From contig CBDVCR010000001.1 of the NCBI GenBank assembly GCA_965372535.1, positions 11,290-75,289 on the forward strand: a stretch of 64,000 nucleotides of DNA. The letters are read 5' to 3'. The stretch comes from an uncultured bacterium (GTDB taxonomy: Bacteria > Nitrospirota > Thermodesulfovibrionia > Thermodesulfovibrionales > JdFR-86). The position numbers and the translations under genes are program-made. Below the pieces are notes generated by a model. That model ran no database searches. It was not told the DNA's origin and worked only from the letters and a program-made list of their open reading frames with translations. Within the stretch, counting starts at the first letter, position 1; the number at the start of each line of letters is the position of its first letter. Positions 33,539 through 64,000 of this stretch are shown piece by piece.

Positions 33539-33599
33539 ATAATATTCTTACCTTGAAAAAGAATATATTGTTTGAATAAATTGATCTGAAAGGAGCATT

Positions 33600-42751: not shown

Positions 42752-42818
42752 TGGCGCGGACGTTTTTATGCCGCTTCGCGGCCTGCGCCTTTGCGGGAGG
42801 CCACAGGGAGACGCCGGG

Positions 42819-44282
42819 ATGGAAAAGCTCTTAATCATCGACGACAACGAAGATATCAGAAGGCAACTCAAGTGGGGCTTTGCGAAAGAGTACGAAACGC
42901 TTATGGCGAAAGACGCCGAAGAGGCGCTCGCCCTTTTCGGGAGGCACGGCCCGAAAGTCGTGACCCTCGACCTGGGGCTGCCGCCGCATGCGGATACGGT
43001 GGTCGAGGGGCTGCGGTGCCTTGAAAGAATTCTGGCCGAGCGGCCTTCGACGAAGATTGTCGTGATAACGGGCAACGAGGAGGGGGAAAACGCGCTCAGG
43101 GCCGTGCGGATGGGAGCATATGATTATTACCGGAAACCGATAGACCTCAAGGAGCTGAGGGTTATCGTCAAGAGGGCTTTCCACCTGCATGAGATCGAGC
43201 GGGAGAATCTCAGGCTTCACACGGCCATTGCCGAAGGGAAGCCCGCCGGGTTGGAAGGCATGCTGGGGCAATGCCCGGAGATGGAGGCTGTTTTCTCGAT
43301 TATCGGGAAGGTCGCCTCCTCCGCCGTCAACGTGCTGGTAGTCGGCGAAAGCGGTACGGGCAAGGAACTGGCGGCCAAGGCGATTCATGCCGGCAGCTTG
43401 AGGAACAGGGGTCCCTTCATGCCGATAAACTGCGGCGCCATCCCCGAGAACCTCCTTGAGTCCGAACTCTTCGGGCACGAAAGAGGCGCTTTCACCGGCG
43501 CGCACGCCAGGCTGCAGGGGAAGTTCGAGTACGCGCACGGAGGCACGCTCTTTTTTGACGAGATAGGCGAGCTGCCGGCGAACCTGCAGGTGAAGCTGCT
43601 CCGCTTTCTCCAGGAGAAGACCATCCAGCGGGTGGGGGGGAGGGAGGACATAGCCGTTGACGCGAGGATTATCGCCGCAACGAATATCGATATATCAAGA
43701 GCCATGAAGGAAGGCGCCTTCAGGGAGGACCTCTACTACAGGCTGGGCGTGATTACGATAAAACTTCCGCCGCTGAGGGAGAGGAAGGGAGATATCATGC
43801 TCCTTTCGAGCTTCTTTCTGCAGAGGGCCAACGCGGAGTTCAAAAAGAGGGTGAGGGGGTTCAGCCCCTCGTCGGTAGAGCTTCTTGAGTCTTGTCATTG
43901 GCCCGGCAACGTGAGGGAGCTTGAGAACAGGATTCAGAGGGCGGTCATTATGTCGGAGGCGACGGTCATTCAGCCCCAGGGCCTCGGGTTCATGGATACC
44001 CCCGCAAGGCAGGAGTCCGGGATCGCCGAGACGATGACCCTCCGGGAAGGGAGGGACAGGGTGGAGAAGGAAATGATAATCGCCGCCACCGAAAAATGCG
44101 AGGGCAACATAGCAAGGACAGCCGAAAGGCTCGGCGTAAGCAGGCCGACACTTTATGACCTAATGAAGAAACACGGTCTTTTCAGTATGCCGGTGCAGGG
44201 CCGGGACGGAGGGGGCCAGAGAAACGGGCCTGTCTCCGATGCGCCGCCCGGCGCGCGGAGCGGTTTACATCCCCTCCCTTAA
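42819..44282 (+). CDS. prsR: PEP-CTERM-box sigma-54-dependent response regulator (PrsR-like)
   Basis: The protein starts MEKLLIIDDNEDIRR. It has REC, AAA+ (GESGTGKE, GAFTGA) and Fis-type HTH domains. Confidence 0.9.
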   Translation: MEKLLIIDDNEDIRRQLKWGFAKEYETLMAKDAEEALALFGRHGPKVVTLDLGLPPHADTVVEGLRCLERILAERPSTKIVVITGNEEGENALRAVRMGAYDYYRKPIDLKELRVIVKRAFHLHEIERENLRLHTAIAEGKPAGLEGMLGQCPEMEAVFSIIGKVASSAVNVLVVGESGTGKELAAKAIHAGSLRNRGPFMPINCGAIPENLLESELFGHERGAFTGAHARLQGKFEYAHGGTLFFDEIGELPANLQVKLLRFLQEKTIQRVGGREDIAVDARIIAATNIDISRAMKEGAFREDLYYRLGVITIKLPPLRERKGDIMLLSSFFLQRANAEFKKRVRGFSPSSVELLESCHWPGNVRELENRIQRAVIMSEATVIQPQGLGFMDTPARQESGIAETMTLREGRDRVEKEMIIAATEKCEGNIARTAERLGVSRPTLYDLMKKHGLFSMPVQGRDGGGQRNGPVSDAPPGARSGLHPLP

Positions 44283-45017
44283 ATCCCTTTGCATGAAGTC
44301 CGGGCTCAGGCGTATGTGCCGGTTTTTCAGGACGGTGATTTCCTTGTCTCTCTGGAGCTTGTCGATTACCCTTGTCGCGGTCTCTCTCGTAAGGCCCGCC
44401 ATGTTCGCTATGTCCCTGTGGGTGAGCTTGAGGTCCAGCGTGACGCCCTCTCCCGTTTCCTTGCCGTACTCCTCAGCGAGCAGGCAAAACAGCATCTTCA
44501 ACCTCTGGGACGCGTTTTTGAAGTTCAGTATCTGTATCATGTCCCAGGAGTTGCGGAGACGGGCGCACAGTATCTGAAGCAGCCGATCGAGTATCTTGCT
44601 CTGGGAATGTATCAGGGAATAAAAATCGTTTTTGGAAATGACGGCGGTCAGGGTGTCTTCTATCGCAAGCACGGTGGCGGGGACCGTTTTGCCGTCAATC
44701 AAGGACATCTCGCCGAAGAATTCCCCTGTCCGGTGTATGGCCAGGATGGTCTCCTTCCCGTCCTCGCTTATCTGGATAACTTTCACCTTCCCGGACAGGA
44801 TAATATACATGTATTCGTTGGTGTCTTCCTCATAAAGTATCGTCTTGTTCTTACTGTACTGTTTAATCTTCAGTTTCGCGCTGATATGGAGCAGGTCCTG
44901 ATCCGTAAGCGAAGCGAAAATCTGTACTGGTTTCAGTCTGTCTATAACGTTTTTTTCTTCCACGTCTGTCCCTCTGGCAAGTCGGTTTTTACACGGTTTC
45001 CCATGTATTTTTTGCAA
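44265..45017 (-). CDS. Crp/Fnr-family transcription regulator
   Basis: cNMP-binding domain (FGEMSLIDG) plus a C-terminal HTH (RDIANMAGLTRETATRVIDKL). The start could be an internal GTG. Confidence 0.9.
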   Translation of the reverse strand: MQKIHGKPCKNRLARGTDVEEKNVIDRLKPVQIFASLTDQDLLHISAKLKIKQYSKNKTILYEEDTNEYMYIILSGKVKVIQISEDGKETILAIHRTGEFFGEMSLIDGKTVPATVLAIEDTLTAVISKNDFYSLIHSQSKILDRLLQILCARLRNSWDMIQILNFKNASQRLKMLFCLLAEEYGKETGEGVTLDLKLTHRDIANMAGLTRETATRVIDKLQRDKEITVLKNRHIRLSPDFMQRDLREGM

Positions 45018-45220: not shown

Positions 45221-45345
45221 AAAAGAGCCGCCGGAGAAATCCTCTCTGGCGGCCCGGCGGACATAGGATAGCGTTTGCTGACATCCTTTAGTCCCGTCGC
45301 TCTGCGTCCCCGGGTTTCCCCAGGTTTGCTCTGAGCAGAGAACCT
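45221..45345 (-). promoter_or_regulatory. GEMM-I (cyclic-dinucleotide) riboswitch-like leader with intrinsic terminator, upstream of the crp-like gene
   Basis: The RNA reads ..CAGAGCAAACC-UGGG-GAAA-CCCG-GGGACGCAGAGC..GGAC-UAAA-GGAU..AUCC-UAU-GUCC.., then GCCGCCAGAGA..UCUCCGGCGGC-UCUUUU. This matches the Vc2 core GGCAAACC..GAAA..GGGACGCAAAGC. Confidence 0.75.
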
Positions 45346-46876: not shown

Positions 46877-48745
46877 TTACCCGCGTGCCTTCTCGTGTCT
46901 GTTCCTTTTCCGGTGCGCTATCAGGAACATGACGATGCCCGCAAGGACAATAATGCCGCCTAAGGAGGCCCTGGGAAACTTTATTCCATAGACAATCGGC
47001 GCAAGCGCCCGCCTAGTGGCGACCCTCAGCGCTTCGTGTCTTGAGATAAAGTCCGCCGCCTGCGGAGACAGCCTGTAGTAGGCGGCCACGAACGCCCTGC
47101 CCGGAAGGCTGCCAAGCAGGTATTCGTCCCTGAATTTCCTGAGCACCACTACATCGGGAGCCAGGGAGCTTCCGTAAGCGGCGGTTGCTATGAAGCATGC
47201 ATACGGGGAGGGGATTGTCGAATCCATGGAACCGGGTGGAGTCACGTCGGTGCCTGTGCCTCCCTGGTCTTGTCCCGGGTCCGCTGAAACGGTAATAACC
47301 GTCTCGCCGCTTGCCGATGCTCCGCCGTCGTCCGTAAACCGGACTTTTGCCGTGAAGGTGCCGGGGGTCTGATAGGTATGAGAGACGGGGCTTGCGGCGG
47401 TCTGGGCGTCGAAAACTCCGTTTCCGTCAAAGTCCCACTCGTACAGGACTATCTTTCCGTCGGGGTCCGAGACCACGGTGGAAAAAACCACCGTTAACGG
47501 CGCTGTTCCCGCATTGGGCGAGGTTTTGACCGAGGAGACGACCGGAGGTTCGTTCAGCGCGGAGGTTGCCGTTATCGTCACCGGAGGCGATATGGTCGAG
47601 GCCCCGCCGTTGTCCGTGATTTTCAGGCGCACGTTGCAGGCGCCTTCGTTTGAATATATATGGGACGCGCTCGATACCGCGCCCGTGTTCTCATCGAATG
47701 TGCCGTCGCCGTCAAAGTCCCACTCGAAGGCGACGACGGCGCCGTCGGGGTCCGATGCCTGTGCCGTAAAGTCCACGAGGAGGGGGACGGTCCCGGTCGC
47801 GGGGGCTGCTGAAAAAGCGGTTATCACGGGGGAGAGGTTCGATGTCGTGAAAGAGTGTTCCGCCGACATGGCCTCGTTGCCCGCTGCGTCGGCGGACCTG
47901 ACCCTGAAGACGTAGGTGGTAAAGCTCGAAAGCCCCGTAATCTCCACGGAATGCATGGTGACCGGGTCGGAAACAAGTGGGGTGATGCTCCCGTAAGCTG
48001 AGGCAAGGCCGTGTTCGACCCTGGAGGACGAGGGCTCGTCGGTCGTCCAGGAGATAATCGCCGAAGAGTCTGTAATGCTTGCGGTCTGTACCGCGGTTAT
48101 TACCGGAGGCGTCGTATCCAGCGGGTCGGACGTGGTGAAGGTATGGGTTTCCGAGACTGCCGCGTTGCCTGCGGCGTCGGCGCTCAGTACCCGGTAGTAG
48201 TACTGTGTTGAAGGCGAAAGGCCGCTTACGCCCTGGGAGTGGGTGGTGACAGGCGAAGGGTCGAGGGCGGTGGAGCTTCCGAGGGCGAGGGTTGCGCCGT
48301 ATTCCACACGGGTGTCGGAAGCCTCGTCAGTGGTCCAGTTTATGGTCGCGCTCTCGACGGTAACGTCCCCGGCGTAGACCCCGGAAATCACCGGGGCGGA
48401 GGTATCCGCGGTTGCCGGGGTCATACTGGCCTCGTTTGAGTACGCGCTTTCATTGCCCGCCGAGTCGTAAGCACTGGTCGCGAAATAGTAGGTGAGGCCG
48501 TTTGTGAGGCCGGTGACCCGGTAGGTTGTCACTTTTCCAACGTCTATGCTCGACGAATAACCGCCGCTTGCGGCGCCGTAGTACACCCTGAAGCCCGCAA
48601 GGTCGCCCAGCGCCGTGCCGTCCTCGTTAGTTGTGGGCGCGTCCCAGGCAAGGGTGGCCTCGCCAGCGAACGCGGAGGCGACTAAAACAAAGGTCAAAAA
48701 GACAATCAAACAAACTGTTGCTGTACTTTTTCCGTTTCTTTTCAA
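46877..48745 (-). CDS. large secreted FN3/PKD-repeat surface protein with a C-terminal CFIATAAYGS-type sorting-like domain
   Basis: The TTG start at 48745 follows a GGGGAGGA RBS. A signal peptide is followed by FN3 modules and two PKD-like modules (..FDGDG[TV]FD..). The tail is ACFIATAAYGS..LRKFRDEYL.. plus a transmembrane helix and HRKRNRHEKARG. Confidence 0.8.
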   Translation of the reverse strand: MKRNGKSTATVCLIVFLTFVLVASAFAGEATLAWDAPTTNEDGTALGDLAGFRVYYGAASGGYSSSIDVGKVTTYRVTGLTNGLTYYFATSAYDSAGNESAYSNEASMTPATADTSAPVISGVYAGDVTVESATINWTTDEASDTRVEYGATLALGSSTALDPSPVTTHSQGVSGLSPSTQYYYRVLSADAAGNAAVSETHTFTTSDPLDTTPPVITAVQTASITDSSAIISWTTDEPSSSRVEHGLASAYGSITPLVSDPVTMHSVEITGLSSFTTYVFRVRSADAAGNEAMSAEHSFTTSNLSPVITAFSAAPATGTVPLLVDFTAQASDPDGAVVAFEWDFDGDGTFDENTGAVSSASHIYSNEGACNVRLKITDNGGASTISPPVTITATSALNEPPVVSSVKTSPNAGTAPLTVVFSTVVSDPDGKIVLYEWDFDGNGVFDAQTAASPVSHTYQTPGTFTAKVRFTDDGGASASGETVITVSADPGQDQGGTGTDVTPPGSMDSTIPSPYACFIATAAYGSSLAPDVVVLRKFRDEYLLGSLPGRAFVAAYYRLSPQAADFISRHEALRVATRRALAPIVYGIKFPRASLGGIIVLAGIVMFLIAHRKRNRHEKARG

Positions 48746-48764
48746 GATATCCTCCCCTTTCAAC

Positions 48765-48893
48765 AAAAAAAGCCGCCAGAGAAATATCTCTGGCGGCACG
48801 GCGGGCATGGGACAGCTTATCTCCGGGCCGTCCTTTAGCCCCGTTGCTCTGCGTCCCCGGGTTTCCCCGGGTTTGCTCTGAGCAGAGAAGAAC
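48765..48893 (-). promoter_or_regulatory. GEMM-I (cyclic-dinucleotide) riboswitch-like leader with intrinsic terminator, upstream of the FN3/PKD gene
   Basis: It has the same architecture as 45221-45345, with compensatory base-pair changes. The terminator GCCGCCAGAGA..UCUCUGGCGGC-U7 ends about 20 nt before the RBS. Confidence 0.8.
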
Positions 48894-49038: not shown

Positions 49039-51318
49039 TCAGGGAGGGGGCTGCCGGGATTTCAGGGCTTTTTCGAGGGCCTTGACGACCGAAGGGTCGT
49101 AGATTGTGCACGAGCCCTTTTTTATTTCCTGCAGTGCTTCTTTCTTTGTGAATTTTTTCCCGTACGGCCTTTCCCTCGTCATTGCCGAGAATGCGTCGAT
49201 AACGGAGATGGCCCGTGAAATGAGGGGTATTTCCTCCCCCCTCAGACCGTCCGGATAGCCCGAGCCGTCGTACCTTTCATGGTGGTGGAGTATGGCGTCC
49301 CTGGCTTTTTCGGAAAACTCAAAGTCGTCCAGCAGGGTTACGGTCGTGTACGGATGGACCCTTAGGGTGCGGGCCTCGGCGGGAGAGAGTTTGGTGCTCT
49401 TCTCAAGAATGCTTTGGTCGATAAACATAAGCCCGAGGTCGTATATCATGGAGACGTAAACCGCGAGGGCCTTTTCCCCCTCCTCGACTCCGAGGTCGTC
49501 CATGACGTCCGAGATAAGGTCAGGGAACAACTTCTTCTTTTTATGGTATCTCTTTTCGGCGTCAAGGAGGCCCTGGAAGGACGTGATGAACTGTTTGAAA
49601 TCATATTCCACGGGGCCGTCCATGGAGAACTTTTCGAAAAAATGCGAAACCCTTTCGACCACCTCGAGGGCGATATAAAGGTCGCGGACCGTGAAGGGGG
49701 ATGAGGTCCTCTTGTTGTTGAGGTTGAGCACCCCTATTGCCTTGTCCCGCAGCTTTATAGGCACTGAAATAAGGGATTTCGTGTTGTACCGCGGATTGTT
49801 CTTCCTTCCGAAACGCGGGTCGCTCTCTATGTCTTCTATGAGCAGTGGTCTGCCCTCGATGGCAACCCACCCGGAAATCCTGTCGCTGAACCGTATTCTC
49901 GTCCGCTTTATGACGTCTTCGGAAAGCCCCATGGCCCCCTTAATCGTAAGTTCCCCCGACAGGTCGTCGCTGAGCATGATGGAACAGACGTTGACGTCGA
50001 GCAGGTCCGAGATGAACTCGATGAACAGTTCCATGGCGGTGTTGACGACGGCCTCCCTTTTTTCCCTTTTTCCTTTTGGGATTGTCAGGGTGACGTGGAA
50101 TTTGTCGTTAATGTTTTGCGCTGTCATTTCCCACCTGTGAAACTCCGCCACCTTCCGGGCAAGGTAGAAGTTCAGGCCCTCCCGGGGATGGTCCGACTGG
50201 AAGATGTATCCTGTTGTGGCGAGGTAGGGCAGTATCGCCTCGGGCATCTTTCTGGGGACGACCAAATCCACGTCTATGAAATTGTTCTCGTGGATGCTCA
50301 GGTCAATTGCGTCTCCGGTCTCAAGGTGGTGGCTGAGGCCCTCCATGAGGTTCAGAAAGAACTGGGCGAGCCTGGTCTTGTCGGCAGCGATGTACGATAT
50401 GTCCTTTTTGATGTCCGTTTCGAGCCTCAGGTCCTTTTTCGCGAGCAAGGAGTTCAGCATCCTGGAGTTTACGAGCTCCTCTATGAGGTCGGCGAGGTTC
50501 ACAACCGTCTTTCTTACCGCCCTCGTTTCGTCGTCAAGCCTGAGGAAATCAAGCAGGTTTTCGACGATGGAGACAAGCTTCGTTGTCTCGTCGCCGATGA
50601 TGTCGCGATATTCCCTCTGGTCGCTCGGGGGCATGTCCCCGGTCTGCTGCAAATAGTATATGGCCCCGCTGATTGAATTGAGCGGCGTCCGGAGCTCATG
50701 AGAGACATGGGTTACGAATTCGGTTTTTACGACGTCGCTCTCGATGAGTTTCTTATTCATCTCCTCAAGCTCCGCGGCCTTCGCCTTGAGCTGTTTCATC
50801 AAAAACGCGTTTTCCAGGGCGATGGCCGCCTGGTTCGCTATGATCTTAACCAGGTCGAATTCGTCTTCCGTAAAAGCTTTCTCGTCCTTCTTGTCGTTGA
50901 TGTTGATGACGCCGAGCAGCCTGCTCTTGCTTATCAGCGGGCATGAGATGAACGATTTTGTCCTGAAACGCTCTCTTGTTTCCCCCGGGAACAGGTCGCT
51001 TTCCTCGATGTTTTCGACAAGGACGGGAACGCGGTTTTTCGCCACCATGCCGGCAATCCCCTTGCCTATCTCTGTTCTGCTGCTTCTGATTTGCGGGCCG
51101 CTAACGCCTCTTGAGACAAAGACGTACAGTTCGTCCCGCTCGCTGAGAAGCATCAGGGAGCCTTTTTCGGCGTTGGCGTAGTTCAGGGCGGACTCCAGCA
51201 TGAGGTTGGCGATGGCGCTTACGTTGTCCGTGGCGACTATGGCGCTCGTGGTTTCCTGAAGTATGCAGAACTTCTTCTCGAAAAGCTCCGGATTTTGCAT
51301 AAGGCAATTATAATTCAT
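49039..51318 (-). CDS. GAF - HisKA - degenerate HATPase - GAF - HD-GYP multidomain signalling protein (cyclic-dinucleotide phosphodiesterase candidate)
   Basis: H-box FVTHVSHELRTPLNSISG is present. The kinase ATP-lid region lacks the DxGxG and GxGxG boxes. The C-terminus has HHHERYDGSGYPDGL (HD-GYP). Confidence 0.8.
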   Translation of the reverse strand: MNYNCLMQNPELFEKKFCILQETTSAIVATDNVSAIANLMLESALNYANAEKGSLMLLSERDELYVFVSRGVSGPQIRSSRTEIGKGIAGMVAKNRVPVLVENIEESDLFPGETRERFRTKSFISCPLISKSRLLGVININDKKDEKAFTEDEFDLVKIIANQAAIALENAFLMKQLKAKAAELEEMNKKLIESDVVKTEFVTHVSHELRTPLNSISGAIYYLQQTGDMPPSDQREYRDIIGDETTKLVSIVENLLDFLRLDDETRAVRKTVVNLADLIEELVNSRMLNSLLAKKDLRLETDIKKDISYIAADKTRLAQFFLNLMEGLSHHLETGDAIDLSIHENNFIDVDLVVPRKMPEAILPYLATTGYIFQSDHPREGLNFYLARKVAEFHRWEMTAQNINDKFHVTLTIPKGKREKREAVVNTAMELFIEFISDLLDVNVCSIMLSDDLSGELTIKGAMGLSEDVIKRTRIRFSDRISGWVAIEGRPLLIEDIESDPRFGRKNNPRYNTKSLISVPIKLRDKAIGVLNLNNKRTSSPFTVRDLYIALEVVERVSHFFEKFSMDGPVEYDFKQFITSFQGLLDAEKRYHKKKKLFPDLISDVMDDLGVEEGEKALAVYVSMIYDLGLMFIDQSILEKSTKLSPAEARTLRVHPYTTVTLLDDFEFSEKARDAILHHHERYDGSGYPDGLRGEEIPLISRAISVIDAFSAMTRERPYGKKFTKKEALQEIKKGSCTIYDPSVVKALEKALKSRQPPP

Positions 51319-52790: not shown

Positions 52791-52851
52791 TTGTTCCGTA
52801 GGGGCTAAAGAGGCGCCTTGACCGGGGGGGCGATAAAATTTTATCCTTAGC

Positions 52852-54231
52852 GTGATGAAAAAACCGTGGGCAGGAAGGTTCAGCGAGGCGACGGCAAAGG
52901 CTGTTGAGTCGTTTACGGAGTCCGTCTCGTTTGACCGCAGGCTCTGGAAGTACGATATCGAGGGCAGCATCGCCCACGCCCGCATGTTGGGCAGACAGGG
53001 AATAGTCTCAAAAAGCGAGTCCGAAAAGATTGTGAGGGGCCTTGGGGAAATCGCCTCCTCCATGGAAAAGGGGGAGTTCGCCTTCAGCGAGGAACTCGAG
53101 GACGTACACATGAACATAGAGGCCGCTTTGGTGGAAAAAATCGGCCCCGCGGGCGGCAAGCTCCACACTGCGCGTAGCCGCAACGACCAGGTGGCCCTGG
53201 ACCTCAGGCTCTATTTAAGGGCAGAGACCGACGAAATACTCGGCCTTATCGGAAGCTTGCAGGCCGCCATGCTTTCGCTTGCGGAGAGGAACATCGGCCT
53301 GATAATGCCCGGCTACACCCATATGCAGAGGGCCCAGCCCGTGCTCCTGGCCCACCACCTCCTTGCATACGTGGAGATGCTCGAAAGGGACCGGGAGAGG
53401 CTTACGGACTGCCAAAAGAGGATAAACGTTCTTCCCCTGGGGGCCGGGGCGCTTGCGGGCACGAGCCTCCCCATCGACAGGAAATACGTGGCCGAGCTTC
53501 TGGGTTTCAGGGCCGTGGCGGCAAACAGCATCGACGCGGTCTCGGACAGGGACTTCGCCCTTGAGTTCGTCTTCGCGGCAAGCATGGTCATGGCGCATTT
53601 AAGCAGGCTTTCCGAGGAACTGGTACTCTGGGCCTCTGAGGAGTTTTCGTTCGTCGAACTCCCCGACGCCTTTGCCACCGGATCGAGCATCATGCCCCAG
53701 AAGAAAAACCCCGACGTGCCGGAGCTTGTGCGGGGCAAGGCCGGGAGGGTGTACGGCGACCTCGTGGCCCTTCTGACGATAATAAAGGGGCTTCCCCTGG
53801 CCTATAACCGGGACCTCCAGGAGGACAAGCCCGCGGTGTTCGATACCGTGGACACGGTGAAGGGGTGCCTCGCGGTGCTTGCCGGGATGCTGCCCCGGCT
53901 CGGGTTCAACGAAAAGAGGATGTATGAGGCGGCCTCCAGGGCCTACTCCACTGCCACGGACGTGGCGGAATACCTGGTGGGAAAGGGCATGCCCTTCAGA
54001 GAGGCCCACGAGATGACGGGCAGGATAGTGGCTTACTGCATCGAGAAGGGCAAGGGCCTCGAGGAGCTGAAAACCGGGGAGTTCAGGAAGTTCTCCGGCC
54101 TGTTTGAAAGCGACATCTCCTCCCGTCTGAGCGCCGAGGCCTCGGTGAAATCCAGGAGTTCCGAGGGCGGCACCTCGCCCAAAGAGGTGAAGCGCCGCCT
54201 CAGAAGGCTGGCTTCCCGGATACGTAAATGA
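52852..54231 (+). CDS. argH: argininosuccinate lyase
   Basis: 459 aa with the signature [12 protein letters not shown]. Confidence 0.95.
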
Positions 54232-55151
54232 AGCCCGGGCCGAGGCTCCTCTGTTTAGTTGTTCTTTCATCACTCGTTGTCTCATGCGGAAAGAAAGCCC
54301 CGCCGAGGTGGATAGAGCCTGTGCCGCCCCCCGCGCCTTCCGCCCTGCGTGCCGTGGTCAGGGAGGACGCCGTCGTACTCAGGTGGGATTACCCTGAAGG
54401 AAGGGTAAAAGAGGGTTTCTTGGTTATGAGGGCCGCTCCGGGTGCGGAATTCGAGGAAATAGCCGTTGTGAAGGAGCAGGCGTATATGGACAGGGATTTC
54501 CTTGCGGGCGTTGCCTATGCATACAGTGTGGCGGCCCTGGGGAGGAGGGGGATGAAAAGCGGAAGCTCCAACCGGGTTGAGGCATCCCCCCCTTCGGGTG
54601 TTGCGCCTCCCTCCGGCCTTTCCTTCTCGATTCACGAAAACGTACTGGACCTCTCCTGGGAGCGCCCCTCGGGGGACGGCATGTTTAACATATACAAGAG
54701 TGCCGGGCAGGATGCCTATCCCATTGAGCCTGTAAATTCCGAACCTCTTGCCGGGGCTTCTTTCAGAGACATCCTGTCCCCGGAAGCCGCTGTCTACTAT
54801 GCTGTAAGGGCGGTCGAGCACGGCGCGTCCGAGGGAGTGACGAAGGAAAGCGCCCCAGCAGAGCTCCGGGTAGGGCCGGAGGACTATATCCCCTCCGCCC
54901 CCGGCGGCCTTGGGGCCGCGGTCGCGGACGGCAAGGTGGTGCTTTACTGGGACGAAAGCCCCGAGACGTGGGTGAGGGGCTACAGGGTCTACCGGGCGGC
55001 GGACGGCGGGGAGTTTGTGGATATTGGGGAATCGCGGACCCCGGCGTTCAAGGACCGGGAGCCCTTCAAGGGGAAAATGCGTTACCGGGTAAGCGCACTC
55101 GGGCCTGTCGGCGAAAGCGCCCTTTCCGGGGCAATAACGGTGTCCCCATAA
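54228..55151 (+). CDS. lipoprotein with FN3-like repeats
   Basis: Lipobox LVVSC; three ..LRWDYP../..LSWERP../..LYWDESP.. modules. Confidence 0.6.
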
Positions 55152-55308
55152 ATCCCTTTTCCCTTAACCGGCCGCCTGTATGAAGCATTGCTTTATATGA
55201 CAATTATGCGCTTCCTGAAGTGGGAGCATCTGTTGCTTGTAATGCCGGCGCATCTAACGCACAATGCGGATACAGGCTCCCGGCGATGTGATATAATCTG
55301 GTCACTGA

Positions 55309-56991
<1,683 letters not shown>

Positions 56992-57073
56992 GCCGCGTCA
57001 TCCCTTTGCCTGTGTGTTGAGTTCGCCCCCGTTTTTTTAGTCCGCCGGAAACGGCCTGTTTATAGGGCCGGGG

Positions 57074-57101
57074 TGGACATTTCCTTCCGCTTGTCTATAA
57101 T
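57074..57101 (+). promoter_or_regulatory. sigma-70-type promoter
   Basis: TGGACA, a 16-bp spacer, then TATAAT, about 30 bp upstream of the next CDS. Confidence 0.5.
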
Positions 57102-57131
57102 TAAAACTATGGCGCGCGTCTCAGGAGGGCC

Positions 57132-58193
57132 TTGGCCGTGAGAATCGCGGAACTTATCCTGCGGAGAGGAAGAGGCCCTTTCGCTTTGTCTCTGCTGCTT
57201 TCGCTCCCCATTGTCTGCCTTTTTACCCTTCTCCTTGCCGTCCTCCATATCTGGGAGGACGGCACGAGGCGGCGCAACTTCGAGATGCAGCTCAGGGAGT
57301 CGGCGAGGGCCCATTTCGAGCAGGTGGTGCTTACCGGGCTGTGGAACGCGCAGCACGGGGGCGTGTATGTAATGCTTGCCGAAGCAGGTTCACGCTCAAG
57401 CATGAGGGTCTCCCCGGAGGACACGGTAAATATCGGCGGCAAGCTGTACACAAAGCTCAACCCGGCGTATATCACCAGGCAGTTGTCCGAGATGGCAGCG
57501 GATAAAGGGTCTTTTATCAGGTTCCGTATATCGAGCCTTAACCCCGCTAACCCTTCCAACAGGCCCGGCAAGTGGGAGGCCCGGATGCTTCGCGCATTCG
57601 AAAACGGCGAGACGGAGGGGTACGGGATAATCGAGCAGGAGGGGTTGGAGTATTTCAGGTATATGTCCAGGCTGGTGGCAACCGAGGGATGCCTTGGCTG
57701 CCACTCGGAGCAGGGCCTGAAAGCCGGGGACATCATCGGCGGCGTAAGCGTAATCATCCCCGCGGGCCTGAACAGGGCGCTTCAGAGCGACATGAGAAGA
57801 CGGAGCATAATTGTCTTCAGCGTTATATGGGGCGCTACCGCCCTGTTAATCCTGGGCATTACATGGGTCTTGGCAAGGAGGCTCAGCCGGGGGGTCAAGA
57901 GCGAGGTGGAAGGCGAAAAACTCAAGAGCGCCGTAAGCATGGCAGGTGCGGCGGCCCACGAGCTCAGGCAGCCGCTGTCCATCATAATGGGGTTTTCCGA
58001 GCTTCTTAAGGACAAGGCGACAAACGGGGAGAACACCGACAGGGAGACCGAAATCATCATAAGCCAGTGCCGACGCATGAACGAAATCATCTCAAGGATG
58101 CTCAACGTCACCTCTTACAGGACTAAGTCCTACGGCGGCTATACCGAGATATTCGACTTCGGCCTGGAACCTGAAGAATCCTCCCGGAAATAA
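57132..58193 (+). CDS. DUF3365 (haem-binding, CxxCH) sensor domain fused to a HisKA-type dimerisation/phosphoacceptor segment, with no ATPase domain
   Basis: It has ..NPANPSNRPGKWE.., ..EGCLGCHSEQG..GGVSVIIP, a transmembrane helix and H-box AAHELRQPLSII. The protein ends about 70 aa after the H-box. The start is TTG 57132 or GTG 57138. Confidence 0.7.
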   Translation: MAVRIAELILRRGRGPFALSLLLSLPIVCLFTLLLAVLHIWEDGTRRRNFEMQLRESARAHFEQVVLTGLWNAQHGGVYVMLAEAGSRSSMRVSPEDTVNIGGKLYTKLNPAYITRQLSEMAADKGSFIRFRISSLNPANPSNRPGKWEARMLRAFENGETEGYGIIEQEGLEYFRYMSRLVATEGCLGCHSEQGLKAGDIIGGVSVIIPAGLNRALQSDMRRRSIIVFSVIWGATALLILGITWVLARRLSRGVKSEVEGEKLKSAVSMAGAAAHELRQPLSIIMGFSELLKDKATNGENTDRETEIIISQCRRMNEIISRMLNVTSYRTKSYGGYTEIFDFGLEPEESSRK

Positions 58194-58758
58194 CCCGCTG
58201 TAGTCGGTCACACAGTTTGGAATTATTGGCCATTTGATCTGAGATTTATTAAGAAAATAAGCGGGATTTGCCGGGAATAGTAAAGAATCGGCGGGATTTT
58301 CAAAAGTTATTTGACCAGTTAGGCATTCCGGTTATCGGGGAATATTTCTTATGGCAAAATCCTCCTTCTCTGAGCCTTGAACACCTGACAAAAAAATCGC
58401 GCTTTTGAGACTTTTTCGAGGAAAGCTCACCCTTTCCCGCTGATTCCGCAAAGACCGGCACGGGATAGGGCTGAACCTGGCCGAAAACCTCAGGGTCGAG
58501 TTCCGCTCCTGAATTGAAGGAGTAGTCCTTGCGGGTAAGCTGAAGAAGAGCATCGTCCATTAGTACGGTATGCCACATTGTCCGATTTTTGTGTGAAATG
58601 GCGCACCTCAATTACTTCGGGTATGCGATATCACACTAAATCAGCCTGATTTTCCGGTTGTCCCTTGCCGGGGAATCTCAATAAAAAAAATCATTTCCCG
58701 CTCAAACCCGCATGGATACTATTTTAGATAGTTTTGCATATTTAATTTGCCACCAAAC

Positions 58759-58774
58759 TGGCACGCAACTTGTA
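58759..58774 (+). promoter_or_regulatory. possible sigma-54 promoter (TGGCAC-gcaac-TTGT)
   Basis: The -24 element is perfect, but -12 is TGT rather than TGC. It ends about 12 nt before the riboswitch-like leader. Confidence 0.35.
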
Positions 58775-58786
58775 TGGAAGAGAGAG

Positions 58787-58918
58787 CCACCGAAAAGAGC
58801 AAAGCCGGGGTAACCGGGCGGCGCAAAGCCACCTGCCCTGAGTTAATCGAAGGGTAGAGGGGGTTGCCGAAGTGGAAAGAGCAGCATCTTCGGCCCGTCT
58901 TTTCGGAGGCGGGTTTTT
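58787..58918 (+). promoter_or_regulatory. GEMM-I (cyclic-dinucleotide) riboswitch-like leader with terminator, upstream of the transglutaminase-core gene
   Basis: The RNA reads CCACCGAAAAGAGCAAAGCCGGG-GUAA-CCGGGC-GGCGCAAAGCCACCUGCCCU..AGGGUAGAGGGGGUUGCCGAAGUGG. It aligns along its length with Vc2 (..GGGACGCAAAGCC..GGUAGCGGGGUUACCGAUGG). The hairpin CCCGUCU..GGAGGCGGG-U5 follows. Confidence 0.8.
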
Positions 58919-58945
58919 ATGTTTACAACATTCGGGGGAGGTACG

Positions 58946-61930
58946 ATGGACTTCAGGCATACGCTTATCGCGAGGGCCGTATCATTTATAGTCCTGCTCC
59001 TGTTTTCGTGGACGTTCGCGGGCGTTTACGACGTGGCCTATGCTGTCAAGAACAGCGGCGAGTTATTCAACAAAGACAACCGTGTTCGCACCATAAGGGG
59101 AAAGACCGCCGCCGGGAAGTTCGAGGAGGCCGTCGAGCGCATGGAGGAGGCCCTTGCCGACCCCTCGCTTGAGATGAAGGACAAGAAGGGCCGGCTGGCG
59201 AAGGTCAGGTCAGAGATGGAGAGGCTTGCGGAAAAACTCAGGGAGGAGTTCGGGGCCACGGAAAAAAAGCTCAGGGAAGACGGGCTTCCCCCGGAGATAC
59301 TTGACAGGCATCATGATTTTGTAAAGCGCTTCGAGGAGAACCTGGACACGGTGCTCGAGCACATCGAGTCCATTGACCGGGCGGCAACGCATTCTGATTT
59401 CGACAAGCGGGTGGGAAAAGCTCTTGAGCATGTCAAAAAGGCAAAGCCGCCGAAGAAGCACGTTCCCCTCGACCCCGACAACCTCCCCCACCGTGCCGCC
59501 GAGCCCACCAGGAAGGAGCCCAGGCTCAAGAAAGAGGAGTTCATAAACGGCATGAGGGCACAGGCCGAGCCCATCCTTGTTGCCTCCACGGGTTCCCTTG
59601 CCGGGCTTCTGGATGAGAACTCACAATATATGCAGCTTGCCCTGGCCGTCGGGCTGCCCGGGCAGGCCGACCTTGCCGAGACAGTGGAGATAAAATTCAC
59701 TCCCGCCATACAGACCAGGGCCGAGGAGCTTGGCGGCAGGCCCCTTGCCATCTACGAGTGGGTGAGGAATAACGTGGAGTTCGTGCCCACCTGGGGCTCC
59801 ATACAGGGTGCGGACTACTGCCTTCAGACCATGCAGTGCAATGCCTTCGACACGGCAAGCCTGCTTATCGCCCTTCTCAGGGCCTCGGGCATCCCGGCCC
59901 GGTACGCCATGGGCACGGTGGAGATGCCCATGGAAAAAGTCATGAACTGGGCCGGAGGGTTTACTGATGCCAACGCGGCCCTTAACTTCATGGCCTCGGG
60001 CGGCATACCCGCAGGGGGGCTCGTCGAGGGCGGGCGGATAAAGGTCGTCCAGATGGAGCACGTCTGGGTGGAGGCATGGATTGATTACATCCCCTCGCGC
60101 GGGGCGCGGCACAGGCAGGGCGGAGGCGATACTTGGATACCCCTGGACGCGAGCTTCAAGCAGTATGCCTATACGGACGGCATGGACGTTAGCTCGGCGG
60201 TTCCATTTGACGCCGAGGGGTTTGCCGACGCCCTCATATCCTCTGCAATCATAAACGAGACGGACGGCTACGTCACCGGGGTGGACTCTGCCTACATCCA
60301 GCAGGCGATGAGCGAATATCAGGCTCAGGTCAGCGATTATATCACTACTAATCATCCTGACGCCACGGTGGGCGACGTTCTTGGAAAGAATGAAATCATT
60401 GTCCAGAAATTTCCGTATCTTCTGGGTACGCTTCCTTACAGGCTCAGGGTAACGGGGGCGCGGTACAGCAGTATGCCCGACAGCTACCGGCATAAGATCG
60501 AGTTCTACCTCGCCGCCGAGAGCATAATTTCCGGGTCAATGCCCATAAGCATCACCAGGAGCCTGCCCGAGCTTGCGGGGAGGAAGATAACGCTCAGCTA
60601 CTCTCCGGCCACTCCAGAGGATGAGGCGGTTATCAACTCCTATCTGCCAGAGCCCCATCCTGACGGCACGCCCATAGACCCCTCTGAGTTTCCGTCCTCG
60701 CTTCCGGCGTATCTGATAAACTTAAAGCCGGAACTGAGAATGGACGGCGAGGTGGCAGCCACGGGCGGGGCGATAGGCATGGGCCATATACAGAAACTCG
60801 ACATGACGTTTACATCTCCGAGCCATGGAAGCGGCGTGGTGGCAAACAAGGTCAATGCGGGCGAGTACTTCGGCATCGCGCTGGATTTGGCCGGGATATC
60901 CGGGCCGCAGATGGAGGCCGTCAAGGCGAAACTTGAGAGCACCAAGGCGAAGCTCGAGTCGGGCAACTACGAGGGGCTTACCAAGGACGACGTCTTGGGC
61001 GACCTGCTCTATGCCACGGCGCTTTCTTACTTCGCGGAGCTCGACGCAATGGACCACGTGCAGGCAAGGACAATGGGGGTGGTTGACATAAGGCTCCCGT
61101 CCGAGAATATTTTCAAGACGGCGCTGGAAGTGGAGCATTCCTTCGGCGTTCCCGTATCCGTTAGCGCGGGCGGGCTTGCGATGGACGCAGACAGGATGTT
61201 GAGCCTTTCGAAGGCCAGGGACGGAGACTATGAGAAGAAGAGGCAGTTCATGCTGGCCTCCGGGATGAACTCATCGGCCCTGGAGCACAGCGTGCCGGAG
61301 CAGTTGTTCTCGACGCCCGAAAACCCGGTCGAGGGGATAAGCGCGGTCAAGGCCCTCCAGATAGCCAACGGGCAGGGCATACCGATATATACGGTCACCA
61401 GGGACAACATCGCCGCGGTGTTTCCGCAGCTACAACTTGACCCCCGGGTGATTAATGATATTTTAAACGCCGTGAATGCGGGCATGGAGGTTACGGTCTC
61501 GAAGACGGACATAACCTACAACGGCTGGATCGGCTGCGGCTACCTCGTCATAAACCCCCTGACGGGTTCCGGCGGGTATATGATTAGCGGGGGTGCGAGC
61601 GGGGCAGTTTTGCTGGTGCTTACCCTTATTTTTAGTTTATTAGCGATAGTGACCGCCGCACCTACTGGCGGAATAGGAGCAGTTTTCTTTGGAATGCATG
61701 CTATTGCAACATTGGAAGGCGCAATCGCTGCATTGTATGGGAAGGATAAATTAAATGAATTTATGAATTGTTTAGTTAAAAGCGTTGCCAAGATTATTGT
61801 TAAAGATAAGACTGCTCACTATTTAAAACCGTATTTAATACCTGCAGTAGCTGTACTGTTACCTTACATCCTATCATTTACTGCTGGTTGGTCCATAGGT
61901 AAATGTATCAGTGACACATTTTACAATTAA
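58946..61930 (+). CDS. large secreted/membrane protein with a transglutaminase-like Cys-His-Asp core, a conserved pre-C-terminal block and a variable hydrophobic C-terminal cassette
   Basis: The ATG at 58946 follows a GGGGGAGG RBS, and there is a signal/anchor sequence. The core is QCNAFDTASLLIALLRASGIPARY, EHVWVEAW and WIPLDAS. The last ~105 aa are AT-rich at DNA level and transmembrane-like. Confidence 0.8.
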   Translation: MDFRHTLIARAVSFIVLLLFSWTFAGVYDVAYAVKNSGELFNKDNRVRTIRGKTAAGKFEEAVERMEEALADPSLEMKDKKGRLAKVRSEMERLAEKLREEFGATEKKLREDGLPPEILDRHHDFVKRFEENLDTVLEHIESIDRAATHSDFDKRVGKALEHVKKAKPPKKHVPLDPDNLPHRAAEPTRKEPRLKKEEFINGMRAQAEPILVASTGSLAGLLDENSQYMQLALAVGLPGQADLAETVEIKFTPAIQTRAEELGGRPLAIYEWVRNNVEFVPTWGSIQGADYCLQTMQCNAFDTASLLIALLRASGIPARYAMGTVEMPMEKVMNWAGGFTDANAALNFMASGGIPAGGLVEGGRIKVVQMEHVWVEAWIDYIPSRGARHRQGGGDTWIPLDASFKQYAYTDGMDVSSAVPFDAEGFADALISSAIINETDGYVTGVDSAYIQQAMSEYQAQVSDYITTNHPDATVGDVLGKNEIIVQKFPYLLGTLPYRLRVTGARYSSMPDSYRHKIEFYLAAESIISGSMPISITRSLPELAGRKITLSYSPATPEDEAVINSYLPEPHPDGTPIDPSEFPSSLPAYLINLKPELRMDGEVAATGGAIGMGHIQKLDMTFTSPSHGSGVVANKVNAGEYFGIALDLAGISGPQMEAVKAKLESTKAKLESGNYEGLTKDDVLGDLLYATALSYFAELDAMDHVQARTMGVVDIRLPSENIFKTALEVEHSFGVPVSVSAGGLAMDADRMLSLSKARDGDYEKKRQFMLASGMNSSALEHSVPEQLFSTPENPVEGISAVKALQIANGQGIPIYTVTRDNIAAVFPQLQLDPRVINDILNAVNAGMEVTVSKTDITYNGWIGCGYLVINPLTGSGGYMISGGASGAVLLVLTLIFSLLAIVTAAPTGGIGAVFFGMHAIATLEGAIAALYGKDKLNEFMNCLVKSVAKIIVKDKTAHYLKPYLIPAVAVLLPYILSFTAGWSIGKCISDTFYN
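61181..61611 (+). repeat. conserved ~430-bp block, copy 1 (inside the large gene)
   Basis: It aligns colinearly (constant offset 1186 bp, no indels seen) with 62367-62797 at high identity. It encodes MDADRMLSLSKARDGDYEKKRQFML...GSGGYMISGGASGAV. Confidence 0.85.
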
Positions 61931-61945
61931 CCGAGGAAGATAATT

Positions 61946-62275
61946 ATGCTGAACTTAATAAGAGAAAATCCCAATCTAATTTTAGGATTAATAATATTAA
62001 CTGCTCTGATTATTGCACTGCTTATTTCGATAAAGAGAGGTGACTATCATCACTCCTACAAGAAATCACTTATTATTTTTGGAGTTGGAATAATTGATTT
62101 AATTGTAGGTATTATCTTTAACTCGATTGAAGTCGGTCGATGGGATAAGGAAACAATTACATCATACTTATTCTTAAAAACCGATAATCTTATTTTAGTG
62201 ATTTTTGGTTATGTCTTTCTTGTAACTGGAGTCTTCCAATTCTTGGTTACAATTGTTAATCGCTTTAGGGCTTAA
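61946..62275 (+). CDS. small 3-TM membrane protein (candidate cognate/immunity partner of C-terminal cassette 1)
   Basis: 109 aa, GAGGAAG RBS, AT-rich, three hydrophobic helices. Confidence 0.55.
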   Translation: MLNLIRENPNLILGLIILTALIIALLISIKRGDYHHSYKKSLIIFGVGIIDLIVGIIFNSIEVGRWDKETITSYLFLKTDNLILVIFGYVFLVTGVFQFLVTIVNRFRA

Positions 62276-62313
62276 AGCTTAAGCAGCACGTTCTTTGACA
62301 ACATGGGAGGCAA

Positions 62314-62348
62314 GGCGGGCACGAAGGCTCAGAGTGTTCGTGCCCGCC
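62314..62348 (+). other. perfect 12-bp GC-rich hairpin at the junction before the orphan module
   Basis: ggcgggcacgaa-ggctcagagtg-ttcgtgcccgcc. No U-tract follows. Confidence 0.6.
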
Positions 62349-62366
62349 TTCAAAAGGAAGCGAAGA

Positions 62367-62797
62367 ATGGACATAGACCACGACATGGTGATGGTGAAGG
62401 CGCGTGACGGAGACGACGAGAAGAAGAGGCAATTCATGCTGGCCTCCGGGATGAACGGCTCGGCCCTGGAGCACTCGGTGCCGGAGCAGTTGTTCAGGAC
62501 ACCCGAAAACCCGGTCGAGGGCATATCGGCGGTCAAGGCGCTCCAGATAGCCAACGAGCAGGGCATACCGATATATACTATCGACCGGTCAAATATAAGC
62601 ACGGTCCTTCCTCAGCTTCAGGTTGATGCCCAGGTAATAAATGACATAAGGAATGCCGTGAATGCGGGGAAAGAAGTGACTGTCTCGAAGACGGACATCA
62701 GCTACAACGGCTGGACAGGCTGCGGCTACATAGTCATAAACCCCGTCACCGGCTCCGGCGGGTATATGATTAGCGGGGGAATGGCGGGGGCGGTTGT
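62367..62797 (+). repeat. conserved ~430-bp block, copy 2
   Basis: See 61181-61611. Confidence 0.85.
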
Positions 62798-63170
62798 TGA
62801 TATAGACGATATTAAGGTTATATGGTTTGGTATTGCCACAAACTTAATATTGTGGGGACCTATCATTATGGGTGTAGGAATGGCTGTCCCTATTGCTGGG
62901 CTTGCTTTGACTGGTGCAATAATCACAGGGCTTGGAGCAGGTATGGTGCTGAGCCAGATTCTGCCTGAAGAAGTTAAAGACTTCATTTTGGAAGCACTAT
63001 CAGATACCAGCGTCATGATTGGAATTCTAACTACCATGTCAATCTTGGGAATATCAACATGTTTATTTGCTGTTGTTGCTCTTCTTCTGCTTTACAATCT
63101 ATATGTACAAACACAAGCCAGTATAAATTATAGATTTCCATATTATTCGACAAAAAATACGTATGCATAA
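62367..63170 (+). CDS. orphan C-terminal module: a copy of the conserved block fused to a second, unrelated hydrophobic glycine-zipper-rich cassette
   Basis: MDIDHDMVMVKARDGDDEKKRQFML...GSGGYMISGGMAGAV is followed by a divergent ~125 aa (..GVGMAVPIAGLALTGAIITGLGAG..). An AAGGAAG lies 6 nt before the ATG. Confidence 0.65.
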   Translation: MDIDHDMVMVKARDGDDEKKRQFMLASGMNGSALEHSVPEQLFRTPENPVEGISAVKALQIANEQGIPIYTIDRSNISTVLPQLQVDAQVINDIRNAVNAGKEVTVSKTDISYNGWTGCGYIVINPVTGSGGYMISGGMAGAVVDIDDIKVIWFGIATNLILWGPIIMGVGMAVPIAGLALTGAIITGLGAGMVLSQILPEEVKDFILEALSDTSVMIGILTTMSILGISTCLFAVVALLLLYNLYVQTQASINYRFPYYSTKNTYA

Positions 63171-63186
63171 TAATTATGGATGAGAA

Positions 63187-63591
63187 ATGATAGAAAAAGT
63201 TATTTCATTAATTGTTATACCTGCAGCCTTGATTTATATAGCAGTTATTGCTAGGCAAAGATTGTATGCTTACATAGGAATAGTTTTTCTATTTCTGATG
63301 ATTTTGATGGCTTTTCCTGATACTGCTGTATTTTTCTCTCTCCATGAAAATTACTTTCCATGGGTGACAGAAAAAATGATATTTAATGCGATAACTACCA
63401 TAACTATAATTGTAGGGCTTATTTTAGCAATTCATTGTTATAAAGCAGAAGCAAAAGCTAAAAAAGAAGGCAATCCAATAATCTTAAAGAGCGATTTCAG
63501 GAAAATACTGGCTCCATCAAAAGGGAATATTACATTTTGGATTATTATCATTATTTATTACATCAGCACCAAGATATTTCTTGGCAATTAA
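63187..63591 (+). CDS. small 4-TM membrane protein (candidate cognate/immunity partner of C-terminal cassette 2)
   Basis: 134 aa, AT-rich, four hydrophobic helices. Confidence 0.5.
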   Translation: MIEKVISLIVIPAALIYIAVIARQRLYAYIGIVFLFLMILMAFPDTAVFFSLHENYFPWVTEKMIFNAITTITIIVGLILAIHCYKAEAKAKKEGNPIILKSDFRKILAPSKGNITFWIIIIIYYISTKIFLGN

Positions 63592-63632
63592 GGCTAAACA
63601 TATAAAGCAAAGGTTTTTACATATATAACAAA

Positions 63633-63751
63633 CCACCGAAAGGGCAAGGCCGGGGCGACCCGGCGGCGCAAAGCCACCTGTCCCATTAAGGATAGAGGGG
63701 CCGTCGAAGTGGGAAGAAACTTTGCCCACCCTTTCGGAGGTGGGCTTTTTT
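63633..63751 (+). promoter_or_regulatory. GEMM-I (cyclic-di-GMP type) riboswitch-like leader with terminator
   Basis: The RNA reads CCACCGAAAGGGCAAGGCCGGG-GCGA-CCCGGC-GGCGCAAAGCCACCUGUCC..GGAUAGAGGGGCCGUCGAAGUGG. The hairpin GCCCACCC-UUUC-GGAGGUGGGC-U6 follows. Confidence 0.8.
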
Positions 63752-63800
63752 AATGGAGATGGAGAATAAAAGTAAAAAAACAATAGGAATGGAGGCAGCC

Positions 63801-64000
63801 ATGAAACAGGGGGGCATATTCATAACAGCGGTCATTACCTTAATCTTGATTTGCACGCCTGGCCCGGGCCATGCCCGGACGCCCGAGATAGAAAGCGGGC
63901 TCAATTACCTGGCCTCCACGCAGAACGCCGACGGCTCATGGGGCGCCGCCGCCTCCGCAACCGATTCCATGACCGCCACGGCCGAGGCGATAGGCGCTCA
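63801..64000 (+). CDS. secreted protein, N-terminal part (prenyltransferase/squalene-oxidase-type repeat beginning); the 3' end lies outside the window
   Basis: The ATG follows GGAGG, and there is a signal peptide. LNYLASTQNADGSWG resembles the terpenoid-cyclase/prenyltransferase repeat. Confidence 0.5.
   Translation, partial: MKQGGIFITAVITLILICTPGPGHARTPEIESGLNYLASTQNADGSWGAAASATDSMTATAEAIGA

Follow-up and report, generated by a model that had tools for sequence, protein, structure and literature searches.

Two related GEMM-I leaders at a transglutaminase locus with the layout of a polymorphic toxin system

The window analysed here, 64,000 nucleotides (nt) of contig CBDVCR010000001.1 from an uncultured Nitrospirota bacterium, carries on its plus strand, from position 58787 to its end, a transglutaminase gene with a run of small cassette-like genes and the beginning of a gene for a secreted protein. 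Two RNA leaders of the GEMM-I type are located in this region, leader 1 upstream of the transglutaminase gene and leader 2 upstream of the secreted-protein gene. The pair had been pointed out in an initial annotation of the DNA.

The transglutaminase gene (58946..61930, +), with the strong ribosome-binding site (RBS) GGGGGAGG at 58934-58941, encodes a protein of 994 amino acids (aa) that matches the Pfam family Transglut_core (E = 1.3e-15). The protein consists of an N-terminal membrane anchor, a conserved body that extends to a YMISGG motif at residue 886 of 994, and a variable C-terminal tip of the last ~110 aa, which is hydrophobic and, according to the GC profile, low in GC. More than 1800 homologues were found, in Geobacteraceae, Nitrospirota/Thermodesulfovibrionales and other groups, conserved to about residue 886 and unalignable from there on. 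An alignment of 27 homologues was likewise well conserved through YMISGG and without consensus beyond it.

Three smaller reading frames follow on the same strand. The first (61946..62275, +) encodes a small protein of 109 aa with three hydrophobic segments and a GC content of ~0.30, a candidate immunity protein for the main tip. No homologue of this open reading frame (ORF) was found in 74 related loci, which had been fetched with the transglutaminase protein and served as the comparison set. The second is an orphan cassette, an ORF of 291 codons (62295..63170, +), which repeats the pre-tip segment and then continues into a different hydrophobic C-terminal tip. Its residues 25-168 (~145 aa) correspond to the last conserved segment of the transglutaminase protein with 80% aa identity (tblastn), and the same repetition was observed at the DNA level as direct repeat D1 (62396-62695 versus 61210-61509, 81% identity over 300 nt). 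The third, imm134 (63187..63591, +), encodes 134 aa with four hydrophobic segments, also at GC ~0.30, and is a candidate immunity protein for the orphan tip; like the 109-aa ORF, it gave no homologue. At the start of the orphan cassette, just past the 109-aa ORF, lies a 19-nt inverted repeat, GGCGGGCACGAA...TTCGTGCCCGCC (62312-62350, +), with UUCAAAAGG and no U-tract behind it; it could be an mRNA-stability or recombination element.

Judged from its architecture, the locus is laid out like a polymorphic toxin system that has orphan tip/immunity cassettes, the toxin roles being putative: a hypervariable tip follows a conserved body, and a downstream fragment repeats the junction with a new tip. 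Loci of contact-dependent inhibition (CDI; cdiA-CT/cdiI) and Rhs loci are polymorphic toxin loci with such orphan toxin-tip/immunity cassettes. The present locus resembles them in its large conserved protein with a hypervariable tip past a conserved motif, in the small adjacent gene, in the promoterless downstream fragment that repeats the pre-tip segment with a different tip and its own small gene, and in the low GC content of the variable parts. It differs from them in its carrier, here a transglutaminase-core protein with a giant MG2/TED-like partner, and no known pre-toxin or toxin Pfam domain was detected. Extra C-terminal fragments were common in the related loci, reaching five in two of them (L051 and L063). 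In L051, L063 (Gallionellaceae metagenome-assembled genome, MAG), L011, L027 and L071 the pre-tip segment recurs in arrays, with three to five copies or fragments each, which suggests large orphan-cassette arrays in an uncharacterised toxin family.

The gene downstream of leader 2 (63801..64000, +; RBS GGAGG at 63791-63795) is cut by the end of the window. The 66 codons present cover a signal peptide and the beginning of an alpha/alpha-toroid repeat, and gave weak SQHop_cyclase matches. A protein search with this 66-aa N-terminus gave no match; used as a tblastn query, the 66 codons recovered a same-strand homologue downstream of the transglutaminase gene in 36 of the 74 loci. The full homologue in locus L009 starts 92 nt past the small ORF that follows the transglutaminase gene and comprises 2898 aa, with five CarboxypepD_reg domains, MG2 and weak TED/prenyltransferase matches. 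Since its N-terminal domain has same-strand homologues in 47 of the 74 loci and opposite-strand homologues in 0, the gene after leader 2 is a conserved partner of the transglutaminase gene and not an unrelated neighbour.

The GEMM-I identity of both leaders was confirmed, and they are ordinary representatives of a known riboswitch class and subtype. A cmscan of the whole window at Rfam gathering thresholds (35 bits for RF01051) yielded four matches, each to c-di-GMP-I (RF01051; c-di-GMP, cyclic di-guanosine monophosphate) and each spanning all 87 model positions. Two of these are leader 1 (58788-58871, +, 53.5 bits, model 1-87/87) and leader 2 (63633-63708, +, 50.8 bits, model 1-87/87). The other two are located on the minus strand, at 48789-48887 (63.7 bits) and 45245-45340 (60.9 bits), and both have a GAAA loop and a P3 receptor. 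In the plus-strand leaders the P2 loop is GUAA (leader 1) or GCGA (leader 2), and P3 is short, without the 11-nt receptor (CUAAAGG...CCNAUG). The full aptamers extend over 58787..58875 and 63633..63712, and with a family covariance model (R1), built from six type-2 leaders and scanned against the window and all 74 loci, they scored 83.8 and 92.3 bits, respectively, the latter being the top score among all matches. Leader 2 has a perfect P2 and every conserved junction nucleotide, along with an A.C mismatch at the base of P3.

A terminator scan detected an intrinsic terminator behind each aptamer. That of leader 1 (58892..58920, +; hairpin 58892-58915) reads GGCCCGUCUU/UUCG/GAGGCGGGUU followed by UUUUUAU, and that of leader 2 (63724..63751, +; hairpin 63724-63745) reads GCCCACC/CUUUCGGA/GGUGGGC followed by UUUUUU. 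The distance from P1 to the terminator is 16 nt in leader 1 and 11 nt in leader 2, and no nucleotide is common to aptamer and terminator. When the two leaders were aligned over aptamer and expression platform, 101 of 121 ungapped positions were identical (83%), with an alignment score of 133.5 compared to 17 +/- 7.5 in shuffles.

The division of GEMM aptamers into a GYRA/no-receptor and a GAAA/receptor type was described in 2007 (PMC1950547). With the former subclass of RF01051 (Weinberg et al. 2007, PMC1950547) the plus-strand leaders share the full-length model match, the GYRA P2 loop, the short P3 with an AG bulge, the AAA linker, equivalents of the C44-G83 pair and the 5' regulatory position. 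The initial annotation had assigned both leaders to this class and proposed a covariance-model check, which both passed over the full model length and above the cut-off. Its coordinates proved correct within 1-2 bases, and the features it had described, namely a terminator hairpin with U-tract in each leader, close kinship between the two and the lack of the receptor-like loop of the minus-strand pair, were all recovered. The genes it had placed behind them also agree, with the gene order 58946-63591 downstream of leader 1 and, downstream of leader 2, a secreted protein whose N-terminal domain, behind the signal peptide, is prenyltransferase/TED-like.

Among the 74 loci, an R1 leader was found directly 5' of the transglutaminase homologue in nine (L005, L008, L009, L013, L014, L015, L040, L046 and L070). 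These are Geobacter, Geomonas and Nitrospirota MAGs (Geobacteraceae, Nitrospirota), and all nine leaders exceeded the Rfam threshold. A second leader copy was detected by the R1 scan in none of the 74 loci; its presence solely in the window marks the second leader as an apparent peculiarity of the window's lineage. In the alignment of the 11 family leaders, 92% of the cells were paired and 8 pairs showed compensatory changes, a result matched by 0 of 500 shuffles, while slid controls reached 37-50% pairing. The register of P1 was set by its top pairs, C5:G94 with 3 compensatory changes and the invariant G6:C93; an alternative register with a G19:C93 pair was discarded, being paired in just 54% of the sequences. 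The R1 scan also gave a weak match at 11350-11432 (-), with CCGAAAAGGCAAGG at its 5' end and a score of 17 bits, below every Rfam threshold. It has no CGCAAAG core and no same-strand downstream gene, and was set aside as a product of chance or decay.

The best joint explanation, which we consider fairly probable, is that both leaders act as functional cyclic-dinucleotide riboswitches and belong to one leader family tied to a toxin/giant-gene module.

Ligand-contact positions were read in Vc2 numbering via the Rfam alignment, where position 20 immediately precedes the G21-C22 pairs and position 92 immediately precedes C93. This register agrees with G74-C75-C76 of the Gs1761 structure and with G83 as the bulged G (bioRxiv 10.1101/617340 for comparison). 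In GEMM-I aptamers G20 contacts G-alpha through its Hoogsteen edge, A47 intercalates and C92 forms a Watson-Crick pair with G-beta; the G20A/C92U double mutant binds cyclic di-adenosine monophosphate (c-di-AMP). G20 reads one ligand base and C92 pairs with the other, and the G20A change leads to binding of cyclic GMP-AMP (cGAMP) or to dual binding (PMC6140456). The C92U change lowers c-di-GMP binding (bioRxiv 10.1101/617340). The GEMM-Ib group is defined by A20 combined with C92 in a fold that is GEMM-I in all other respects (PMC6140456).

In leader 1 the pocket comprises A20 (58798), C92 (58867) and a canonical 5-nt J1/2, whereas leader 2 has G20 (63643), U92 (63704) and a 4-nt J1/2, which is the consensus state of the family. 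A47 is present in both, and the canonical G20/C92 combination in neither. The GEMM-Ib signature, A20 plus C92 in a GEMM-I fold, is found in leader 1 and not in leader 2. Both minus-strand leaders also have A20 and C92. Leader 1 and the minus-strand pair therefore carry the cGAMP-type (GEMM-Ib) signature, from which their ligand is predicted, and the two plus-strand leaders probably respond to different ligands or with different affinities.

Known GEMM-Ib riboswitches for 3',3'-cGAMP are Gs1761 and pilM (Kellenberger 2015 and Nelson 2015, as cited in PMC6140456 and PMC8835794). With them, leader 1 and both minus-strand leaders have in common A20, C92 within the G-C-C motif (G74-C75-C76 in Gs1761) and the canonical J1/2 length. 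The difference is that the known examples are Geobacter ON switches whose terminators overlap the aptamer, whereas the present leaders are from a Nitrospirota/Thermodesulfovibrionales-like genome and OFF switching is predicted from the platform of leader 1.

The state of leader 2 is the common one. In a sample of 25 aptamers (the 11 family leaders, joined by 14 that share their type of P3 and were found by scanning metagenomes), G20 was present in 24/25, U92 in 18/25, and J1/2 was one nt shorter than in Vc2 in 20/25. These last two features of the subclass, and A20 in leader 1, are departures from the GYRA type of RF01051 as described. U92 co-occurred with the short J1/2 (counts 17, 3, 1 and 4; Fisher p = 0.012, not corrected for phylogeny). 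Just 2 of the 14 aptamers from metagenomes have a transglutaminase gene downstream; the U92 type thus extends beyond the toxin locus. The G20/U92 majority may bind either c-di-GMP through a wobble pair or cGAMP in the other orientation; a possible mode for the latter is a flipped 3',3'-cGAMP, with its G read by G20 and its A paired to U92. It is a tentative proposal, and one we hold to be doubtful, that aptamers with G20, U92 and a short J1/2, which include leader 2 and are present in Geobacteraceae and Nitrospirota, form an unrecognised GEMM-I specificity class, of which leader 1 would be a natural three-change conversion to an A20/C92 pocket. If true, two sister riboswitches that read out different ligands would control a single toxin locus.

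The strongest competing explanation is that both leaders sense c-di-GMP, with A20 in leader 1 and U92 in leader 2 either tuning affinity or being neutral. Both leaders do score as c-di-GMP-I, G20A variants bind c-di-GMP with a nanomolar dissociation constant via a protonated adenine (PMC6140456), Vc2 with C92U retains reduced c-di-GMP binding, and a majority of U92 (18/25) is compatible with a G.U wobble to the ligand. This explanation is a serious possibility, although it falls short of being probable: three of the four GEMM-I aptamers in the window combine A20, C92 and the canonical J1/2 length, leader 1 departs from the consensus of its family in exactly three features of the pocket, and a conserved U instead of C at the Watson-Crick contact calls for an explanation.

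With respect to the origin of leader 2, the initial annotation had suggested that the cassette locus was inserted into, or duplicated, an existing riboswitch-controlled unit, which would make leader 2 a recent duplicate of leader 1. Consistent with this, the leaders are 83% identical over ungapped columns, platform included, the unit from the transglutaminase gene to the giant gene normally has one leader and has two only in the window, and the cassettes are low in GC. However, the full-leader identity between leaders 1 and 2 (0.75) is no higher than that between leader 2 and its counterparts in other genera and phyla (0.77 to L008, 0.75 to L005 and 0.74 to L070, in the Nitrospirota and Geobacter range of 0.74-0.77). 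The platform motif UUUCGGAGGURGGCUUUUUU, common to both window leaders, is found in L008 too, and orphan cassettes are ordinary in related loci without extra leaders. A recent duplication is thus unsupported, and the leaders appear to be sister members of an old family and not recent copies of each other.

The closest relative found also fails to show the state before such an insertion. In this relative (L195, a JGI contig) the argininosuccinate lyase gene corresponding to window 52852-54231 is 98% identical, while the nearest named sequences, Nitrospirota/Thermodesulfovibrionales MAG proteins, reach 67-73%. By blastn, L195 aligned collinearly to window 52812-58198, with 96.5-97.5% nucleotide identity and no match beyond. 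According to the junction alignment, the breakpoint (58198/58199; 7027/7028 in L195) lies directly past the stop codon of the HisKA gene. In L195 it is followed by nifU, amidase and amidohydrolase genes, without a transglutaminase gene and without a leader. As the entire block past 58198 is missing there, the block from 58199 onward appears to be a strain-variable island, whose left edge in the window is the segment 58199..58786.

The comparison with relatives lacking the cassettes, which the initial annotation had proposed, therefore revealed presence or absence of the whole unit and no pre-insertion riboswitch unit, since the sole close relative found (~97%) is without the leaders as well. 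The part of its evolutionary idea that stands is that the transglutaminase/giant-gene unit is conserved with a usual leader count of one and that the cassettes and the second leader lie inside it; a recent duplication and an insertion of the cassettes into an existing riboswitch unit are unsupported. The opposite case it had considered, leaders on unrelated and independently conserved genes, is also contradicted by the giant gene, the partner of the transglutaminase gene in 47 of the 74 loci. On balance, we consider it unlikely that leader 2 is a recent duplicate of leader 1, and sisterhood within an old leader family remains the preferred account.

The expression platforms were analysed by thermodynamic folding. 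For both window leaders, the full-length minimum free energy (MFE) structure contained no terminator; the 5' strand of the aptamer was paired with the terminator loop and 3' arm, and P2 and P3 persisted. In leader 1 the aptamer 5' strand CCACCGAAAAGAG matches the terminator loop and inner stem by complementarity (duplex -14.3 kcal/mol, z = -2.75), and in leader 2 the corresponding strand CCACCGAAAGGG matches the terminator loop and 3' arm (duplex -18.9 kcal/mol, z = -3.6). When P1 was enforced, aptamer and terminator formed together, at a cost of +2.8 kcal/mol in leader 1 and +3.2 kcal/mol in leader 2; in this model the cost is far below the binding energy of a nanomolar ligand.

Similar alternatives were observed across the family. 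Transient antiterminators appeared in the prefix folds of 6/6 leaders tested; that of L005 was an 11-bp helix between the P1 3' strand (position 92 included) and the terminator 5' arm and loop. In 16/21 family leaders, one P1 strand was complementary to the terminator at z < -1.64. The number of A residues in J1/2 equalled the number of U residues in the terminator loop in leader 1 (4/4), leader 2 (3/3), L008 (4/4) and L040 (4/4). A GC-rich hairpin with U-tract beyond the aptamer and alternative pairing via the P1 strands constitute the layout of an OFF-type platform, whose function is here predicted.

The predicted mechanism is as follows. Without ligand, the single-stranded J1/2 and the P1 5' strand (CCACCGAAA(A)G..) would pair with the downstream hairpin at its loop and 3' arm, resulting in readthrough, and the unpaired J1/2 would serve as the toehold for antitermination. 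In some relatives, the P1 3' strand would pair with the terminator 5' arm and loop instead, likewise blocking the terminator. With ligand, P1 and J1/2 would be locked in the aptamer, the hairpin with its U-tract would form and transcription would stop. Since ligand would lock J1/2 in this way, we infer from the folds that both leaders are transcriptional OFF switches of the Cd1 kind. In the Cd1 OFF switch of Clostridioides difficile, aptamer and terminator coexist (PMC9262584); the present leaders share with it the non-overlapping aptamer and terminator, an antiterminator that rivals the P1 region and termination favoured by ligand. They differ in that the platform of Cd1 is long and contains a strand of its own for switching, whereas here the antiterminator would consist of the aptamer 5' strand (or P1 3' strand) and the terminator loop or arm, within a platform of ~40 nt.

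The reverse direction, in which ligand prevents termination as in the Geobacter pilM and Gs1761 cGAMP riboswitches, appears improbable for these leaders. Many GEMM terminators overlap P3 and were read as ON switches (PMC1950547), pilM is an ON switch (PMC9262584), and in four relatives the ligand-free MFE structure already has the terminator. In the window, however, the terminators start 16 and 11 nt past P1 and have no nucleotides in common with the aptamer, enforced P1 gives the terminator while the ligand-free MFE removes it, and the folds gave no structure with the hairpin blocked by the bound aptamer. Least probable is that leader 2 is a decaying relic of which only the hairpin works, as terminator of the cassette/immunity genes: it has no recognisable promoter upstream, the A.C mismatch at the P3 base and no counterpart at the giant-gene position in any relative, but a relic would not retain the best family-model score (92.3 bits), a perfect P2, all conserved junction nucleotides and intact antiterminator complementarity (z = -3.6).

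A sigma-54-type promoter-like site of putative function, TGGCACGCAACTTGTA (58759..58774, +), precedes the leader 1 aptamer by 13 nt. For the pattern TGGCACN5TTGYW, 2 matches were counted in the window where 0.18 were expected, the other being at 31892-31907, and two NtrC-type sigma-54 activator genes are present in the window (9775-11154 and 42660-44282). No comparable sigma-54-type site was found upstream of leader 2, where the nearest sigma-70-like site (63147-63174) lies upstream of the 134-aa ORF, and the terminator scan found no terminator between this ORF and leader 2. Given the lack of both, leader 2 is most simply understood as an internal checkpoint on transcripts from upstream. Leader 1, probably fed by the sigma-54 promoter, would gate the toxin, immunity and orphan-cassette genes, and leader 2 would be a second, lineage-specific checkpoint gating the giant partner gene, which in relatives would otherwise be co-transcribed behind the toxin genes.

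Several points weigh against this reading. The C-terminal tips and the small ORFs matched no Pfam family in the domain scan, and we infer the toxin and immunity roles from architecture, the immunity role of the 109-aa ORF from its position alone. The ligand assignments are based on two nucleotides; aptamers with A20 can have dual specificity, and those with U92 may still accept c-di-GMP via a wobble pair. The OFF assignment is derived from thermodynamic folds, and for L005, L009, L014 and L046 the full-length MFE structure is already aptamer plus terminator, so that regulation there would have to be kinetic. In 5/21 family leaders there was no significant alternative pairing. Pairing of the 5' strand with the terminator gives a long-range helix that stops 2 nt short of the U-tract, and this helix might itself cause termination. 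Leader 2 may also have a promoter of its own, the region upstream of it being AT-rich.

Further features were noted in the surroundings. One leader of the minus-strand pair is located upstream of a Crp/cNMP-binding regulator (44265-45017) and the other upstream of the gene for a secreted PKD/fn3 protein (46877-48808), behind which an fn3/CarboxypepD_reg protein is encoded. Next to this riboswitch pair is a GAF-HisKA-HD_5 (HD-GYP-like) gene (49039-51318). L195 is not collinear with the window upstream of 52812 either, so the minus-strand riboswitch region appears to be variable as well. Between the fn3 gene and the PGI gene of L195, a ~375-bp insertion (3770-4145) is 78-86% identical to window 6432-6746 (-), which suggests a small repeated or mobile element. 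The GC content of window 31000-36000 is 0.33-0.42, compared to 0.55-0.60 elsewhere, and this may be another foreign segment. Among the relatives, the leader-transglutaminase module of Geomonas anaerohicana (L046) is located ~700 nt past a cluster of four tRNA genes (8611-9014), and the L070 contig, which carries the module, starts with a tmRNA gene (1-280); both are typical neighbourhoods of island integration sites.

The finding itself is ordinary in the sense that the class, the loop subtype and the transglutaminase link are already in the literature, where genes for transglutaminase-like cysteine proteases were among the GEMM-associated genes in 2007 (PMC1950547). Its modest added value lies in the company the leaders keep and in their pockets. 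Most aptamers of the subclass have a U where the Watson-Crick contact to the ligand is made, a state that is directly testable by binding, and two sister leaders with different ligand-contact bases in one locus constitute a compact natural experiment on the change of riboswitch specificity. The leader family travels with a widespread, uncharacterised locus composed of a transglutaminase-type putative toxin gene and a giant surface-protein gene, which points to cyclic dinucleotides as regulators of what is likely a system for competition between bacteria in Geobacteraceae and Nitrospirota.

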